From a virus (lineage: Duplodnaviria; Heunggongvirae; Uroviricota; Caudoviricetes): 5,602 nt of DNA. Location: the IMG/VR virus record IMGVR_UViG_2563366830_000004, positions 1-5,602 of that record. The stretch is one strand, 5' to 3'. The translations under genes were made by a program, and so were the position numbers. The notes under the pieces were generated by a model that did no database searches, was not told the DNA's origin, and saw only the letters and a program-made list of their open reading frames with translations. Below are positions 1 to 5,094 of this stretch, piece by piece; positions within the stretch are counted from its first letter, which is position 1; each line of letters begins with the position of its first letter.

Positions 1-2066
1 CCGCCAGCAGTTTCCAGATCGATAGTCTTACTAAATTCCGGTCCCATATCTCCGGTTTGCGGATCGAAAAATATTGCACCTATTGAGATGATCGGGGCAT
101 CAGGATTTTTTCCCATGGTTTCAAGGTCGATCATTAGATGGTCACACGTCCTGCTGGTGGATGTGATTTCTTGATGACCGTTCACCTTAATTGAGTGATC
201 TGCCGTCTCGCCAGTTTCATTATCGCTATCGTGATGCTGATTGCCGCCAGTGTTCTCCTTGTGTGGATGTTCAGCGCCTTCCATTTCCTCCGGATCATCT
301 TCCTGAACTTCAGGCTGATACTCTTCATCGAATGTTTCCTGGTATGTTGCGTCGCCCATTACCGCGCCACAATCAGGGCAGTTGCCGCCGCCGGTCTGAC
401 CGCAGGCGGTGCAGACTTTTTCCACTTCCTGTTGCGCCACTGATTCAGGCTGTTTCGTTTCTGGCTCGTTTTGTAACGCATTTGGGCTGTTTTGTTCCGC
501 TTTCTGGTCGTTCTGTTCCGTTTCTTGCTGGTTCTGGTTCACAGAATCGCGGGTCTGGTTCCCCTTAACCCATTTCGGATCATTCGGGTCGCTAATCCCT
601 TCAACAAATTCACCACGTGATACTGCAAGCAGTTCATCGGCGTCAGGCTGGCTGATATTGGCTGCCTGCATAATTTTGTTTACTTCGTCAGCGGTAACTT
701 TTACTGACCCTGGTTGTGCGGTCGTGTCAGATGCACCAGTATTTTGTTGTGAACCTGAGTATGTACCGTTTTTGCGGGCGAAATATTCTTCTTTCGTGAT
801 TTCAGTAGCCCCAGCAGACAGCGCCTTATCCAGACCAGAAAGTTTGTTTGCGCGACCGTATTTTTCGCCGTCCTTATCGGTGAAAAGGAAGTAGAACGGT
901 CCCTCACGCTCTACAGATGGTTCGTCTTCCACTTCGCATTCGGTTTTTTCGTTGTCCGGCATTGCCGTTTCCACTGCATCAGTTTCTGGTACTGGTGACG
1001 GGAGAGTACCAGCTGTGCCCTGATTTGTTCCTTCGTCATCTTCAAACACGCCCTTGGTAGTCAGGTATTCAGTGATGTATTTGTTCAGTGCTACGGGATC
1101 TTTGTGAATGTCGATCGGACGCTCACGGACAAGGCCAAAAATAGTCTGACGGTCGTAGCGAACGGCATCGGGTTGTTTGCGCATTGATGCGGAAATGCGC
1201 TTCCAGTCTTCGCGATCTTTGTCGATAACTTCATTTTTTGCCCGGCGATGGATGCTGCCGTCAATGTTTCCGGTATCAATATCGCCAGGCCAGAGAGCGT
1301 AGGCCAGTTCTTCATCCAGCGTTTTCCATGTCTGCTTGTATTCGCGACAAATGGCGGCAGTGACTGGGTTGATTTTTCCTGCTGAGTTTTCAGTGTGCTG
1401 TTGATTGACTCTGGCGCGGGCGAGATCAACAACAGACGTGTATTTTCCAGTCTCTTTGCGCTCTGCGTCCTGCCGTTTTTTCCAGTTACGTAATTCAGCC
1501 TGAATTTCTGGCCATTTGGCACCCGGATTACATTTGTGTTTAACCCATCCGATAGCGAACAGTTTGCGTTCCGGATACATAGCGTTAATTTCAGGCGTTT
1601 TCATCAGTGCTTCAACGATATGCCCGTCAAAGGTAGCAACGTCTTCCTGCAGTAATTCCTGCGCGTCAATCGCCATATCAACGGTGATGTTTTCACATGT
1701 GTCGAACTTAACCATGACAGCGTTCTGTACTTCAGGGGCCAGCTTGTCAAAAGTGACGTTCATCGGATCTGATTCAGTCTCAACCGGGACAAAGGAAGCA
1801 GACGCCTCATCCCAGCGGTTTTCCTGCATATATTCAGCATCCCAGGAATCTAGGGCAGGGCGGGGTATACCGGGTTTATCCTCGCAGACAAGAAATTTAT
1901 AAGCGCAGTCCTGAGCAGCCGGATAATGTTCCAGGAATTGCCAGTGAAATTTTGCGCGGGCGCGACGTTCATCACCGGCTTCAATGGCAGTGGCTACAGC
2001 GACTGCACCTTCTTCCTTTATTGCCTGTTCGTCCGGAATGGCGGCGCAAATAAAGACTTTACTCAT
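1..2066 (-). CDS. Large prophage exonuclease-family protein (RecE / YdfE-like), partial: N-terminal 688 codons, C-terminus beyond the window start
   Basis: Minus-strand frame open from ATG at 2066..2064 down to codon 5..3, checked triplet by triplet with no stop. SD GAGGT about 8 nt upstream. Absent from the ORF track, presumably because there is no stop in the window. N-terminus MSKVFICAAIPDEQAIKEEG. Internal motif ELLAVSRGEFVEGISDPNDPKWVKG. CxxC-x8-CxxC at 369..413. Last in-window residues DHLMIDLETMGKNPDAPIISIGAIFFD. Position at the distal end of the early-left operon matches recE/ydfE in Rac/Qin-type prophages. Family assignment is from memory. Confidence 0.75.
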   Translation of the reverse strand, partial: MSKVFICAAIPDEQAIKEEGAVAVATAIEAGDERRARAKFHWQFLEHYPAAQDCAYKFLVCEDKPGIPRPALDSWDAEYMQENRWDEASASFVPVETESDPMNVTFDKLAPEVQNAVMVKFDTCENITVDMAIDAQELLQEDVATFDGHIVEALMKTPEINAMYPERKLFAIGWVKHKCNPGAKWPEIQAELRNWKKRQDAERKETGKYTSVVDLARARVNQQHTENSAGKINPVTAAICREYKQTWKTLDEELAYALWPGDIDTGNIDGSIHRRAKNEVIDKDREDWKRISASMRKQPDAVRYDRQTIFGLVRERPIDIHKDPVALNKYITEYLTTKGVFEDDEGTNQGTAGTLPSPVPETDAVETAMPDNEKTECEVEDEPSVEREGPFYFLFTDKDGEKYGRANKLSGLDKALSAGATEITKEEYFARKNGTYSGSQQNTGASDTTAQPGSVKVTADEVNKIMQAANISQPDADELLAVSRGEFVEGISDPNDPKWVKGNQTRDSVNQNQQETEQNDQKAEQNSPNALQNEPETKQPESVAQQEVEKVCTACGQTGGGNCPDCGAVMGDATYQETFDEEYQPEVQEDDPEEMEGAEHPHKENTGGNQHHDSDNETGETADHSIKVNGHQEITSTSRTCDHLMIDLETMGKNPDAPIISIGAIFFDPQTGDMGPEFSKTIDLETAG

Positions 2067-2158
2067 TTTGTTTTACCTCATTACAGATTTAAGGGTGAAC
2101 AAATCCCTGCCATTGCTGGCATATAAGAATGAAACCGGATATTTATTACGGAACTGTT

Positions 2159-2350
2159 TTAAAGACCTGCCGGGATTTCGTTATTATCCTGGTGAATGAC
2201 TTTATCGACCGGGTAACAGTTACCGGGAATTTTCTGTTCGGTTGCTGCAGTCACACACTCCTGCATTGTCCTGTGAACACTGACTGCAATATCAACTGGC
2301 TCTCCGGAAACAAGAAAAACTGTCAGAACAAGTGCAAATGCTGTATTCAT
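2159..2350 (-). CDS. ydfD: YdfD-like small membrane (lysis) protein, 63 aa
   Basis: ATG at 2350..2348 overlaps the dicB stop codon (ATGA overlap, translational coupling). SD AAGGA 8 nt upstream. Product MNTAFALVLTVFLVSGEPVDIAV... has a hydrophobic N-terminal segment. The 81-aa ORF-track version (start 2404) begins inside dicB and has no SD. Size and order match my recollection of Qin ydfD. Confidence 0.75.
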   Translation of the reverse strand: MNTAFALVLTVFLVSGEPVDIAVSVHRTMQECVTAATEQKIPGNCYPVDKVIHQDNNEIPAGL

Positions 2351-2535
2351 TGTGCACATCCTTTTTGTATCGGACGTAAACGGGCCAGCATTGAAAGAAT
2401 GCATATTTTATTTAATAACTCCCGTTCGTGTTTTCTCTTGTTAATGGCATCTTCAGTAAATACAGGGTTACTGATAGTGACACCAATTTCAAAACAACCT
2501 TCAGACGTATTAACGTTTGGTAATAACGTTTCCAT
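2347..2535 (-). CDS. dicB: DicB cell-division inhibitor (MinC-targeting small protein), 62 aa
   Basis: ATG at 2535..2533 with SD GAGGA 7 nt upstream. Product METLLPNVNTSEGCFEIGVTISNPVFTEDAINKRKHERELLNKICILSMLARLRPIQKGCAQ, which closely matches my recollection of K-12 DicB (62 aa). DicF lies about 180 nt upstream on the same strand. Confidence 0.85.
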   Translation of the reverse strand: METLLPNVNTSEGCFEIGVTISNPVFTEDAINKRKHERELLNKICILSMLARLRPIQKGCAQ

Positions 2536-2713
2536 TATCGCGTCCTCAACAATGAATTTTGTGATGCAGTGCCTGGTGCCTCCAGGTGACGTTAACCAGT
2601 TAACAATTAACGCCGGGTTAGTTGATGCTCGTTACGCCCGTAAAATACCGCCTTACTGCTTTAACTGTTCCGCGTGCGCATAGCCGCATTCACCGCATCA
2701 CAAAATTCACTTT

Positions 2714-2770
2714 AAAAAGGGCGGCAGAGCAGTCACGGAGTAAAACTGATACCGCCAAATGTCACCAGAA
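2714..2770 (-). ncRNA. dicF: DicF small regulatory RNA (Hfq-dependent, ftsZ-targeting); 5' end approximate
   Basis: Reverse complement of 2714..2770 is TTCTGGTGACATTTGGCGGTATCAGTTTTACTCCGTGACTGCTCTGCCGCCCTTTTT. It ends in a GC-rich stem plus U5 (intrinsic terminator) and matches my recollection of E. coli DicF. Located between ydfC-like and dicB as in the K-12 dicB operon. The mature 5' end comes from processing and cannot be fixed from sequence. Confidence 0.75.
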
Positions 2771-2796
2771 AATTGATAACAGAGGGCGTTGTAGCG

Positions 2797-2833
2797 GGGT
2801 TGTCACTTAAGCGTATGGTCAACCTGACAACCC
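2797..2833 (-). other. Perfect 9-bp stem-loop (GGGTTGTCA / TGACAACCC, 19-nt loop) just 5' of DicF on the operon transcript; candidate RNA processing structure
   Basis: Inverted repeat read directly: arms at 2797..2805 and 2825..2833. No U-run follows on either strand, so it is not a terminator. Confidence 0.45.
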
Positions 2834-3106
2834 GGTGCATTTTCTGGAGCAATGGAGGAAACCCCAGCCATACTTACCGCCGCGCCATTTCGCGGAGTGC
2901 CACAACCGGAAGCGCACGGTCGAACTAAATTTAACGACACCGTACAGAGAGACCAATTTCGCCGTGCGCTTTCGCGTTATGCCCTGACTTTTCAGGGACA
3001 TATCCTTTCAGTAAACTGTCAGTGCCGGATGCTCACCCGTGTCCGGCGCACGCACTCCACCTGACCAGTGGAGAACTCCTTAATTACCAACCCTCAGGAG
3101 GGTGAA

Positions 3107-3385
3107 ATGGATAAAAAGCAAATTGAGGCCCTGCAATCTATTATTGAAGAACAAGATGAAGCTATCAGGATTCTTTCATATCGCACTGATATGATACTAA
3201 ATATGCTTTCTGCATTAACGGCTGCGCTTGGTGGTACAAAAACAAACGTATACCGCGAAGTTGTTATTCAACAGATAGATAAATTTGAAAAAACCATACC
3301 AGGTATTAATGCTCATCTTGCAGAACAAGAGAAAGACCATGCTCTTATGGCAATTTCTTCAGTAGCTCTCCCGAAAGTTGAGTAG
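3107..3385 (+). CDS. Hypothetical 92-aa acidic, predicted helical protein; AT-rich moron convergent to the early-left operon
   Basis: ATG at 3107 preceded by SD AGGAGG (3096..3101) with a 5-nt spacer; stop TAG at 3383..3385. Product MDKKQIEALQSIIEEQDEAIRILSYRTDMILNMLSALTAALGGTKTNVYREVVIQQIDKFEKTIPGINAHLAEQEKDHALMAISSVALPKVE. About 37% G+C by hand count, versus roughly 50% in the neighbouring large gene. The ORF-track start at 3068 (GTG) lies inside a hairpin and lacks an SD. Confidence 0.7.
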   Translation: MDKKQIEALQSIIEEQDEAIRILSYRTDMILNMLSALTAALGGTKTNVYREVVIQQIDKFEKTIPGINAHLAEQEKDHALMAISSVALPKVE

Positions 3386-3746
3386 TTTTAATTGTTGTTT
3401 TGAAATAATCACTGCTTTCACATTTGAGTGATTTCATGGCAATCCAAATGCGGGCCTCTGTGCCTGCATTTGGTTCCAGTTGCTGTAGACGTTTTGCGTC
3501 TTCCAAAAGTAAGGCGATAATGTGTTTCAGCTTCTCATCATTTGCTTGATTCTTGTTTTCAGGCGAATTCTGTCCGCCGAATAGGCGCTTCTCTTCATAC
3601 AGACCTATAAAGGCACGACGCACGTTACCGGATATAGTATCGATGGTTTCCTTTTCTACAGTACTCAGGTCAAGAGTCGCCAGTTGAGAGCGAACCACAT
3701 TCGCTGCCATTTCCTGGAATGGCATTGGTAAATCTTTAAATTCCAT
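3345..3746 (-). CDS. Hypothetical 133-aa protein, no recognisable motif; member of the early-left operon
   Basis: ATG at 3746..3744 with SD GAGG 6 nt upstream, 22 nt after the ydfC-like stop. Product MEFKDLPMPFQEMAANVVRSQLATLDLSTVEKETIDTISGNVRRAFIGLYEEKRLFGG... The last 41 nt overlap the 3' end of the plus-strand 92-aa gene. Confidence 0.7.
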   Translation of the reverse strand: MEFKDLPMPFQEMAANVVRSQLATLDLSTVEKETIDTISGNVRRAFIGLYEEKRLFGGQNSPENKNQANDEKLKHIIALLLEDAKRLQQLEPNAGTEARIWIAMKSLKCESSDYFKTTIKTTQLSGELLKKLP

Positions 3747-3768
3747 TATTAGCCTCGTTGGTTAGCTA

Positions 3769-3987
3769 TTAACGTGGGTATGTAACCATTCTGGCAATGC
3801 TTAATGCCGCTGCTTTTTCCAGCCTGGTGATATCCTGCTCCAGAGCGGACAGATTTTCAGCCTGCTTAGTCCTGGCTTCATTGGCCCATTTCAGATCCTG
3901 CACTGCATTAATTTTCTGGCGCATCCACTCATAAAGTTCATCATCGGTATAGTCTGGCGCGATGATGACGGGTTCTCGTTTCTGCAT
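3769..3987 (-). CDS. ydfC: YdfC-like small protein, 72 aa
   Basis: ATG at 3987..3985 with SD GAGGA 7 nt upstream. Product MQKREPVIIAPDYTDDELYEWMRQKINAVQDLKWANEARTKQAENLSALEQDITRLEKAAALSIARMVTYPR. Size and operon position match the third gene of the K-12 dicB operon (recollection). Confidence 0.75.
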   Translation of the reverse strand: MQKREPVIIAPDYTDDELYEWMRQKINAVQDLKWANEARTKQAENLSALEQDITRLEKAAALSIARMVTYPR

Positions 3988-4016
3988 ACTGATTCCTCGC
4001 GGTGCTGTTTCGCTTA

Positions 4017-4145
4017 TCAGCCGTTAGATTTTCCCGAACTGGAAAGCGCCTGTTTAAATTCACTGAAGCTGAGAGCTTCTTCGCCTTCGGCAAGACCATC
4101 GAAGTATTCTTCGTAAGCCTTTTCCATGATTGTGTCGAAATCCAT
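4017..4145 (-). CDS. ydfB: YdfB-like small protein, 42 aa
   Basis: ATG at 4145..4143 sits 1 nt after the upstream gene's TGA (GAGTGATATGG), SD-like AGGTGA upstream; stop TGA at 4017..4019. Product MDFDTIMEKAYEEYFDGLAEGEEALSFSEFKQALSSSGKSNG. Below the ORF-track size cut-off. Size and position match K-12 ydfB (recollection). Confidence 0.65.
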   Translation of the reverse strand: MDFDTIMEKAYEEYFDGLAEGEEALSFSEFKQALSSSGKSNG

Positions 4146-4146
4146 A

Positions 4147-4302
4147 TCACTCACCTGAGTTTCTTTCCAGCCAGCGACGGGCACCATTTTCGGTTTTAAA
4201 CGTTTTGCTTTTGGTATACGTCATCGCGGTGAATGTGCCGTCCTGGTTGGGAAACACGCCGTACACCAGAGATTCGTTGTTGCCAAGCTCGATAGTATCC
4301 AT
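4147..4302 (-). CDS. ydfA: YdfA-like small protein, 51 aa; first gene of the early-left operon
   Basis: ATG at 4302..4300 with SD GAGG and a 5-nt spacer; stop TGA at 4147..4149. Product MDTIELGNNESLVYGVFPNQDGTFTAMTYTKSKTFKTENGARRWLERNSGE. Below the ORF-track cut-off. Size and position match K-12 ydfA (recollection). Confidence 0.7.
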   Translation of the reverse strand: MDTIELGNNESLVYGVFPNQDGTFTAMTYTKSKTFKTENGARRWLERNSGE

Positions 4303-4371
4303 GCTGACCTCATTTCCCCTTAACGCCGGGTGGCGGAACTAAAACCTACAGCGCCGTGCTGTTCTTGATAG

Positions 4372-4394
4372 AAATATTAGTAACGCGGATATTT
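4372..4394. promoter_or_regulatory. Candidate left operator: inverted repeat AAATAT-N11-ATATTT overlapping the -10 and spacer of the leftward promoter
   Basis: Arms at 4372..4377 and 4389..4394. The 9-mer AAATATTAG at 4372..4380 recurs at 4460..4468 and, inverted, at 5088..5096 in the right operator region. Confidence 0.45.
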
Positions 4395-4402
4395 TAAGTC
4401 AA
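4374..4402 (-). promoter_or_regulatory. Leftward early promoter (PL / dicBp equivalent)
   Basis: On the minus strand: -35 TTGACT (4402..4397), 17-nt spacer, -10 TAATAT (4379..4374). Predicted start near 4367, about 65 nt upstream of the ydfA-like ATG. Confidence 0.6.
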
Positions 4403-4499
4403 CAGTATGGCGTATGATATTTTTGATTTGGTAACTATGTAAATGTTTTTTCAAGGGAAAAATATTAGTTATACAGCTGATTTGCAGAAGTTATGGCAC

Positions 4500-4529
4500 A
4501 AAAAAACCGACTAAGACGTCGGTTTTTTT
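4500..4529. terminator. Bidirectional rho-independent terminator between the repressor gene and the PL/OL region
   Basis: A7 (4500..4506), stem CCGAC / GTCGG (4507..4511 and 4518..4522) with a 6-nt loop, then T7 (4523..4529). Lies 26 nt downstream of the repressor stop codon. Confidence 0.8.
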
Positions 4530-4555
4530 GTTGTGGATGGGGTAGTGAGCGGTGG

Positions 4556-5017
4556 CTACTGGTTACGTTTCTTTAGTGCCAGCATGTTCTCGAAGGCTTC
4601 CTCGTAGAGCTTGTTTAGTCCACGTAGCTGGTTAAGGAGTTTGGCTTTTTCTGACGCAGGTAGAATCTCGAAGAGGTTAAGTAACTCTGCCTGTTCTTCA
4701 TTGACCAGCCTCCATCCTTTGCCTGAAAAGTTATCATCATAAGTATCTGATGATCTTACATAATTCATTAAGTCTTTAAGGTCTTCTCGAATGTCCTCTG
4801 GTTTTACCTTTAACAGAGCCGCAAATTTTAGCGCAGCGTCGGTATTTACCGGTATCTTGCCGTTCAGATACTGGCTAACGGTGCCTTGAGATTCGAATCC
4901 CAACAACTCAGCCGCCAGCTCTTGAGTCAGCTTCAGCTCTTTTTTTCTTGCATTCCATGCGGCTTTTAAATTCTTGCTCGCTTCTGGAGTTGCAATCACT
5001 TCGCGTGTTTTTTTCAT
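4556..5017 (-). CDS. Prophage repressor, CI/DicA-type HTH (XRE family), 153 aa, without a LexA-like S24 cleavage domain
   Basis: ATG at 5017..5015, stop TAG at 4556..4558. The N-terminal part KELKLTQELAAELLGFESQGTVSQYLNGKIPVNTDAALKFAALLKV has the lambda CI / P22 C2 HTH pattern. The C-terminal part (ELLNLFEILPASEKAKLLNQL...) resembles the DicA C-terminus as I recall it and has no Ser-Lys peptidase motifs. Sits upstream of the dicB-type operon and divergent from a Cro-like gene. Confidence 0.85.
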   Translation of the reverse strand: MKKTREVIATPEASKNLKAAWNARKKELKLTQELAAELLGFESQGTVSQYLNGKIPVNTDAALKFAALLKVKPEDIREDLKDLMNYVRSSDTYDDNFSGKGWRLVNEEQAELLNLFEILPASEKAKLLNQLRGLNKLYEEAFENMLALKKRNQ

Positions 5018-5023
5018 ACATAG

Positions 5024-5051
5024 AGTTTATTTGTTTTACCAATATTATCAA
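5024..5051 (-). promoter_or_regulatory. Repressor (maintenance-type) promoter giving a leaderless or near-leaderless mRNA
   Basis: On the minus strand: -35 TTGATA (5051..5046), 16-nt spacer, -10 TAAACT (5029..5024), only 6 nt before the ATG. There is no SD ahead of the repressor start, as for lambda PRM. Confidence 0.5.
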
Positions 5052-5065
5052 AGATAGTCTGGCTA

Positions 5066-5094
5066 TTGATCTTTAAAATTAGCGGGGCTAATAT
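5066..5094 (+). promoter_or_regulatory. Rightward promoter (PR equivalent) for the Cro/YdaS-like gene
   Basis: -35 TTGATC (5066..5071), 17-nt spacer, -10 TAATAT (5089..5094). Predicted start near 5101; SD GAAGG at 5114..5118; ATG at 5125. Confidence 0.6.
5078..5092. promoter_or_regulatory. Candidate right operator: perfect palindrome ATTAGC-GGG-GCTAAT overlapping the PR spacer and -10
   Basis: Read directly from the sequence. Shares the AAATATTAG core (inverted) with the left operator region. Confidence 0.45.

Follow-up and report, generated by a model that had tools for sequence, protein, structure and literature searches.

A ydfE-family prophage gene that joins a RecE-related middle region to a predicted DEDDh 3'-5' exonuclease domain

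Introduction

The gene described here occupies the left end of a 5,602-nt stretch of Caudoviricetes DNA (IMG/VR record IMGVR_UViG_2563366830_000004, positions 1–5,602; the whole of this stretch is referred to below as the window), and its closest described counterparts are RecE of the Rac prophage, YdfE of the Qin prophage and exonuclease A (DexA) of phage T4. RecE (exonuclease VIII) of Escherichia coli K-12 is a PD-(D/E)XK enzyme of 5'→3' polarity, with its nuclease domain at residues 564–866 (PMC11611040). The K-12 ydfE gene (b1577) is a pseudogene of the Qin prophage, in which the insertion sequence (IS) IS2E begins at codon 255. T4 DexA is a 3'→5' DNA exonuclease (PMC12153337; T4 annotation). 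In K-12, ydfE belongs to the dicBF transcript, which starts from dicBp upstream of ydfA, extends through ydfDE, is repressed by DicA, and has been likened to that of λ PL (PMC10448788). A literature search on ydfE did not find a functional study.

Here, we show that the window gene is the uninterrupted counterpart of ydfE, which in K-12 persists only as an IS2-truncated pseudogene, and that it is not a RecE-type recombination exonuclease. Its product shares with RecE a non-catalytic region, and ends in a domain that resembles T4 DexA.

Results

The open frame at the left end of the window is a ydfE gene

The gene and its putative ribosome-binding signal are located as follows.

1–2066, minus strand: ydfE-family prophage exonuclease gene, 5' 688 of about 824 codons (identified by the open frame, a RefSeq homologue and Pfam)
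2076–2079, minus strand: Shine-Dalgarno-like GAGG, 9 nt 5' of the ATG (read from the sequence)

Translation of the minus strand from the ATG at 2064–2066 gave 688 sense codons without a stop up to the window edge, with nucleotides 1–2 forming the start of codon 689. Given the base composition of the window, 688 open codons would occur by chance with p ~1.2e-17, and the ATG is the start that RefSeq assigns to the 824-aa homologue in strain THO-006. The frame is missing from the program-made list of open reading frames (ORFs), as the first-pass annotation of this DNA had remarked (the minus-strand entries for 1–2066 do not exceed 143 aa), because the listing tool leaves out ORFs that run off the window end.

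The product matches K-12 YdfE at 90% identity over residues 1–256, and not beyond codon 256. Since this identity ends exactly at the IS2E junction, the window gene is the intact counterpart of ydfE: the K-12 copy is cut after codon 255, in agreement with the first-pass annotation, which had described it as an N-terminal fragment interrupted by an IS element, whereas the window copy continues for at least 688 codons. Both are the last genes of a dicBF-type operon, in the slot after dicB and ydfD. Over its whole 688 aa the product is 96% identical to the RefSeq 824-aa 'exonuclease' WP_032290541.1, and it matches PHROG 2082 ('exonuclease') from end to end (residues 1–688 to profile positions 1–687 of 823). 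Precomputed Pfam matches for the window's own 689-residue product (4877–6942 of the source scaffold, L021) are YdfE_N (PF27430), YdfE_C (PF27432) and Rv2179c-like (PF16473); our direct Pfam search, which used an older copy predating both YdfE models, matched PF16473 only.

The gene is matched by megablast in 4798 of 5426 complete E. coli genomes, at a median of two places per genome and with at least 80% query coverage in 3491 of the matching genomes, where it is annotated as 'exonuclease' or '3'-5' exonuclease', and by the Prokaryotic Genome Annotation Pipeline (PGAP) also as '3'-5' exoribonuclease'. A single protein cluster at 90% identity has 23,183 members. The protein homologue search gave near-identical E. 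coli sequences only, and the diversity of the family was taken from a representative protein library. Full-length copies are present in sequenced lambdoid phages, for example mEp460. The ratio of nonsynonymous to synonymous substitution rates (dN/dS) is 0.13–0.22 against eight relatives; the gene is under purifying selection.

The frame ends at an assembly gap

The source scaffold, KE137254.1 of assembly GCA_000408725.1 (locus L021), was retrieved by an exact match to the IS-truncated YdaS-like protein of the window. Positions 4877–10478 of L021 are 100% identical to the window and form a whole contig, flanked by runs of 10 N on the left (4867–4876) and 960 N on the right (10479–11438). The left gap falls inside the exonuclease gene. 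When the sequence was extended leftwards across it, the adjoining contig was found to end with codons 25–824 of the exonuclease gene, that is, 800 sense codons with neither a stop nor a frameshift before the normal stop, followed by excisionase, integrase and ompW. The frame thus ends at codon 688 where a short-read draft assembly broke inside a repeated prophage gene; the edge is not a biological boundary, and the gene only looks truncated there because of the assembly. The first-pass annotation had proposed a full-length and possibly functional copy. The first part is more than the window alone can show, as codons 689–824 lie beyond the gap; the second is reasonable given the dN/dS values.

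The two contig ends overlap over 1995 nt at 98.2% identity, and therefore represent two alleles or copies of the gene. Read naively, the scaffold seems to hold two such 'genes' in tandem, of 800 and 689 aa; this false pair arises from the second partial copy (codons 25–824) adjoining the window. Mismatch mapping showed that window nt 1–~880 and 1700–2600 are identical to the PPompW-type allele of strain M15, that nt ~880–1700 are identical to the THO-006-type allele, with about 100 mismatches to the PPompW-type allele, and that the differences between the adjoining contig and the window are confined to window nt 400–900. This block mosaic reflects either gene conversion between prophage copies, giving a natural recombinant, or a chimera made by assembly or consensus calling.

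These observations bear on whether this copy is functional, or even real as written: the gene could be decaying within a damaged prophage, or be a short-read consensus chimera of two paralogous copies. The gap with its overlapping contig ends and the mosaic of two alleles would fit such an explanation, as would the IS3-family insertion in the prophage described below and the state of the gene in the closest relative sharing the IS junction, E. coli MS 196-1 (L012:4592–7063), where codon 140 is a nonsense codon and the annotation gives a pseudogene with an internal stop. Against it, the frame is stop-free over 688 codons here and 800 in the adjoining contig, other genomes carry intact versions of both parental allele types, and dN/dS is well below 1. 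Thus, we regard a defective or artefactual copy as quite unlikely. The nonsense codon of MS 196-1 was also considered as a defect shared with the window, and rejected, as the window has Gln there.

The similarity to RecE lies outside its nuclease domain

The part of the product that precedes its C-terminal domain is organized as follows.

1032–2066, minus strand: folded N-terminal region YdfE_N, codons 1–345 (AlphaFold2 mean predicted local distance difference test score (pLDDT) 85)
1032–1349, minus strand: most conserved helical sub-domain of the scaffold, codons 240–345, common to RecE-type proteins; the BLASTP match to RecE starts here
147–1031, minus strand: acidic/polar, mostly disordered middle region YdfE_C, codons 346–640, homologous to RecE 340–591
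369–413, minus strand: zinc-ribbon-like CxxC-x7-CxxC motif (CTAC...CPDC), codons 552–566, conserved in RecE, where it aligns to CNACGQTGGDNCPDCG

In the AlphaFold2 model of the first 350 residues, the N-terminal region consists of an alpha/beta part (1–95) and two helical parts (111–206 and 247–338). Residues 245–340 are the best-defined part of the full-length model (pLDDT 94–98), and the sub-domain at 240–345 occurs in relatives with either a RecE_N or a YdfE_N N-terminus; a narrow alignment of it was used for a related-locus search, which found five loci. The middle region contains only small elements (beta at ~390–417, helices at ~458–482), with disorder predicted at residues 347–387, 422–459 and 500–634 of the full-length model, in which the zinc-ribbon-like motif is of low confidence.

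BLASTP aligned window residues 262–626 to K-12 RecE 278–591 (E 3e-60), with about 75% identity over the last ~150 residues of the match, the CxxC-x7-CxxC motif included. As this similarity lies outside the RecE nuclease domain, what is shared is a non-catalytic scaffold and not the enzyme. The profile searches agree with this. In the K-12 RecE control, Exonuc_VIII (PF06630, N-terminal) was found at 2–178 (327 bits) and DUF3799/PDDEXK (PF12684) at 615–850, whereas PF06630 had no match at E ≤ 0.1 in the window protein or in the 824-aa homologue, and the PD-(D/E)XK domain PF12684/DUF3799 was not found in the window protein or in full-length homologues, in which PF16473 occupies that position. The NCBIfam exodeoxyribonuclease VIII equivalog NF007259 fell below its cut-off (279.9 bits vs. 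1269), with residues 445–626 of the window protein covering model positions 437–602 only. Additionally, no PD-(D/E)XK structure was among the top Foldseek matches.

The first-pass annotation had described the gene as RecE/YdfE-like, and searches against RecE, YdfE and Pfam nuclease models did return significant similarity to both proteins, together with PF16473. The YdfE half of that description stands, and the RecE half holds for the non-catalytic region only; the further claim of a recombination exonuclease of the RecE kind does not survive the profile results or the DEDDh nature of the catalytic domain. A RecE-like (exonuclease VIII) enzyme would degrade double-stranded DNA 5'→3' and work with a RecT-like annealase. 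In favor of such an enzyme one could cite, besides the BLASTP and partial NCBIfam matches, that several phage records name homologues 'exodeoxyribonuclease VIII', and that the gene occupies the recombination-module position just upstream of xis-int, a map position it shares with RecE. However, the shared segment leaves out the nuclease domain, the two Pfam domains matched by RecE are absent, the C-terminal domain is DEDDh by both sequence and fold (see below), with a predicted 3'→5' polarity as against the 5'→3' polarity of the RecE PD-(D/E)XK domain, and no RecT partner was found in any of the five contexts examined for genes of this type. A RecE-like activity is, in our judgement, scarcely credible.

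The C-terminal domain is of the DEDDh type and closest to T4 DexA

The part of this domain that lies in the window comprises two features.

3–146, minus strand: first quarter of a DEDDh (Rv2179c/DexA-like) 3'-5' exonuclease domain, codons 641–688 (Pfam PF16473)
120–128, minus strand: Exo I motif D647-L-E649 (metal-binding Asp and Glu), equivalent to DexA D7/E9

The 44 residues 643–686 match PF16473 profile positions 2–45 with 57.4 bits (gathering cut-off 27), and full-length homologues (823–824 aa) contain the complete domain (227 bits) as well as a weak RNase_T match. The Exo II and III residues D747, H797 and D802 fall beyond the window and are present in all full-length relatives; the allele in the adjoining contig carries the Exo II Asp and the Exo III H-x4-D (...FEGERHNALDDARYQ...), which does not imply continuity with this exact copy. 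In an alignment with T4 DexA, the five catalytic residues D7, E9, D119, H186 and D191 are invariant in full-length relatives. The only solved relatives found by sequence, 8KEL and 8KEN, are both T4 DexA. An AlphaFold2 model of a family representative (pLDDT ~90 over residues 640–820) has a DnaQ-like fold, and its top Foldseek matches are DexA, RNase T and Orn/REXO2, all DEDDh enzymes, with probability 1.00. DexA differs from the window family in being a stand-alone protein of 227 aa with extra loops, about 29% identical, while the window family fuses the domain to a scaffold of ~640 aa and does not conserve the W152/D169 residues that recognize 5-hydroxymethylcytosine (5hmC). Taken together, these results leave little room for doubt about ydfE-family membership and DEDDh architecture, and make it probable that the predicted 3'→5' exonuclease is active.

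The substrate of such an enzyme could be RNA, as reported for Mycobacterium tuberculosis Rv2179c; transcripts of the phage or the host might, for example, be processed or degraded. Both the name of the Pfam family and the PGAP product name '3'-5' exoribonuclease' point in this direction, and RNase T and oligoribonuclease are among the structural neighbours. Nevertheless, the closest solved relative by both sequence and fold is the DNA exonuclease DexA, the scaffold is common to the DNA enzyme RecE, and RNase T acts on DNA too in the matched structures. An exoribonuclease function thus appears improbable to us.

Alternatively, the prophage could use the gene against other phages, its product being, like HREX/EcD, a DexA-like exonuclease that selectively degrades superinfecting phage DNA that is modified (5hmC). 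The window domain belongs to the same DexA/Rv2179c family as EcD (HAK9828821.1, 'HREX'), a stand-alone E. coli DexA homologue that protects against T4 (PMC12153337), and phage infection is also countered by the neighbouring gene dicB (PMC6832061). EcD is, however, a different protein, encoded by a separate gene with other termini (the primers encode MIDTET... and ...TIPETYD). The residue pattern of EcD is not present in the window family: the 5hmC signature (W152 and D169, with D90 lost; Kang et al. 2025) is replaced by Y (C in one relative) at W152 and by A at D169, in an alignment that is gapped and less certain around D169, and the tetramer residue D90 is retained, with S87 changed to P. 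Moreover, PADLOC gave only a weak generic match to a cas-associated DEDDh model and no defence-system assignment, the gene lies in a presumably repressed lytic operon that would not be expressed in the lysogen, and it is retained in a viable phage, mEp460, in the position of the recombination module. Such a defence function is unlikely on this evidence. That EcD might be the C-terminal domain of the window protein itself was also considered, and rejected on the primer-encoded termini.

Downstream partners follow the nuclease module

A search of 1.84 billion representative proteins yielded 466 relatives at E ≤ 1e-3, and five modules were mapped onto the longer ones. YdfE_N and the middle region are followed by DEDDh in the window gene, by PD-(D/E)XK in P0132, P0205, P0207 and P0252, and by a C-terminus without a Pfam match in a third class; RecE_N is combined with the middle region and DEDDh in P0125, P0131 and others, and with PD-(D/E)XK in RecE itself and its relatives. 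The genomic context of these genes tracks the nuclease module and not the scaffold, as summarized below.

PD-(D/E)XK type (K-12 Rac; P0207 at L017; P0132 at L018; Citrobacter braakii at L036): RecT directly downstream, 4/4
DEDDh type (PPompW-type loci; THO-006; phage mEp460; P0125 and P0131, at L016 and L019): annealase downstream, 0/5
Unclassified C-terminus of ~300 aa (Erwinia, Pantoea, E. whittamii; L032:6341–9114, L033:6341–9162, L035:6302–9081): Sipho_Gp157 (PF05565) gene immediately next

The difference between 0/5 and 4/4 contexts corresponds to a Fisher p of ~0.008, for a small sample from few lineages and not phylogenetically corrected. In DEDDh contexts, the next genes are excisionase/DUF4224 and/or integrase, giving the annealase-free order dicB-ydfD-exo-xis-int, and P0125 sits in a Rac-like kilR-ydaE operon. 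Pfam searches of the called genes within ~20 kb around the gene (L004–L011, L021–L024) and of the window ORFs found no RecT, Red-beta, Erf or Sak. A recT-like gene downstream, which the first-pass annotation had proposed to look for, was thus found neither in the source scaffold nor in any DEDDh-type relative examined, and the gene lacks the adjacent annealing protein of a SynExo-type two-component recombinase.

Two relatives carry apparent in-frame fusions, both of them probably deletion products. In P0212 (703 aa), RecE_N and the middle region lead directly into a RecT domain, and in P0065 (810 aa), the DEDDh exonuclease is fused to a tyrosine-recombinase domain.

The gene closes a dicBF-type operon

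The genes of the window follow one another on the minus strand in the order repressor (153 aa, helix-turn-helix (HTH))–ydfA–ydfB–ydfC–133-aa ORF–DicF–dicB–ydfD–exonuclease. Those that mark the operon are listed here.

2159–2350, minus strand: ydfD-like gene (DUF1482), 63 aa as annotated in relatives (L012/L013); directly upstream of the exonuclease gene, same operon
2347–2535, minus strand: dicB, cell-division inhibitor (Pfam DicB, 129 bits); same operon
2719–2770, minus strand: full-length DicF small RNA (Rfam RF00039, 77 bits vs. gathering cut-off 48), between the 133-aa ORF and dicB
4556–5017, minus strand: CI/DicA-like HTH repressor, 153 aa (Pfam HTH_3), in a position analogous to dicA-dicBp in K-12

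By analogy with K-12, the 153-aa repressor presumably represses the early-left operon, of which the exonuclease gene is the last member. A scan of the window for promoters and terminators gave results close to those for shuffled sequence (8 promoter-like sites vs. 7.2 expected, and 7 terminator-like sites vs. 6.2) and is not taken as evidence.

Several features of the neighbourhood were noted in addition. An in-frame extension upstream would lengthen the ydfD-like ORF to 81 aa (2159–2404, minus strand) and make it overlap the end of dicB, with the DUF1482 match starting from residue 22. Window 3093–3748 is absent from K-12 Qin; it contains the 133-aa minus-strand ORF, the exact protein of which occurs in 4205 contig-collection blocks, and an overlapping convergent plus-strand ORF of 105 aa (92 aa in RefSeq), with a Pfam match to neither ORF. 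The immunity region at 4341–5358 is unlike K-12 dicA/dicC and consists of the 153-aa HTH_3 repressor and a YdaS-like cro; megablast gave no Qin match beyond window nt 4340. At 5358–5602, the right end of an IS3-family element lies at the 3' end of the YdaS-like cro, the product of which has 78 aa, not 91. E. coli MS 196-1 and M15 have this junction too; in M15 it is accompanied by loss of the replication genes from ydaT to P.

Discussion

The evidence is best accounted for as follows. The frame is the first 688 of ~824 codons of a gene that closes the early-left operon (PL-like, of dicBF type) in a lambdoid prophage of the PPompW/Qin type. Its product consists of a folded N-terminus of ~340 aa, a long acidic middle region that is largely disordered and has a zinc-ribbon motif, and a C-terminal DEDDh (DnaQ-fold) domain, and would act as a Mg2+-dependent 3'→5' exonuclease, opposite in polarity to RecE. 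If the dicBF operon is a guide, its synthesis would await inactivation of the repressor; in lytic development it could then shorten linear DNA from the 3' ends, with no annealing protein of its own. We place the probability of this explanation as a whole, its specific biological role excepted, at about 0.75. As to that role, we favour the trimming of DNA ends in lytic growth, on the grounds of DexA as the nearest enzyme, of a scaffold in common with a DNA-end enzyme, and of the map position; we hold it at somewhat less than even odds.

Several points weigh against this explanation. The window holds Exo motif I only, and the C-terminus of this copy lies outside it; the mosaic 688-aa sequence could be partly an assembly chimera. 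Individual copies of the gene do decay, as the one in MS 196-1 shows. The exonuclease activity is a prediction for a domain that Pfam and PGAP name an exoribonuclease, and the fold search with the N-terminal domain gave no informative relative and hence no functional clue. The IS3-family insertion beside the immunity region may disturb the regulation of the operon here. Finally, we know of no established role for a 3'→5' nuclease in lambdoid recombination modules.

For genome annotation, the finding changes little: the gene is ordinary and ubiquitous, with intact copies in most E. coli genomes, where it is routinely annotated, and Pfam families are already named after it. Many phage records nevertheless still use the label 'RecE/exonuclease VIII-like', which is misleading, because the catalytic domain is of opposite predicted polarity and has no RecT partner.

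One point that may merit follow-up is the architecture itself, in which different nucleases appear interchangeable on a scaffold shared with RecE. We tentatively propose, as an idea that is rather doubtful at present, that the RecE/YdfE N-terminal and middle region is a shared targeting scaffold on which lambdoid phages swap end-processing modules, each with its own neighbour. The PD-(D/E)XK module (5'→3') may then go with RecT, the DEDDh module (3'→5') with no annealase, and the third C-terminus with a Gp157-like gene. The DEDDh form may accordingly serve a distinct RecT-independent function in DNA-end processing (or as an anti-nuclease or in defence) and not be a degenerate RecE. If the scaffold is indeed modular in this way, comparison of the DEDDh and PD-(D/E)XK forms would offer a way into the function of the long-unexplained N-terminal 560 residues of RecE, a region that matters for linear-linear recombineering.

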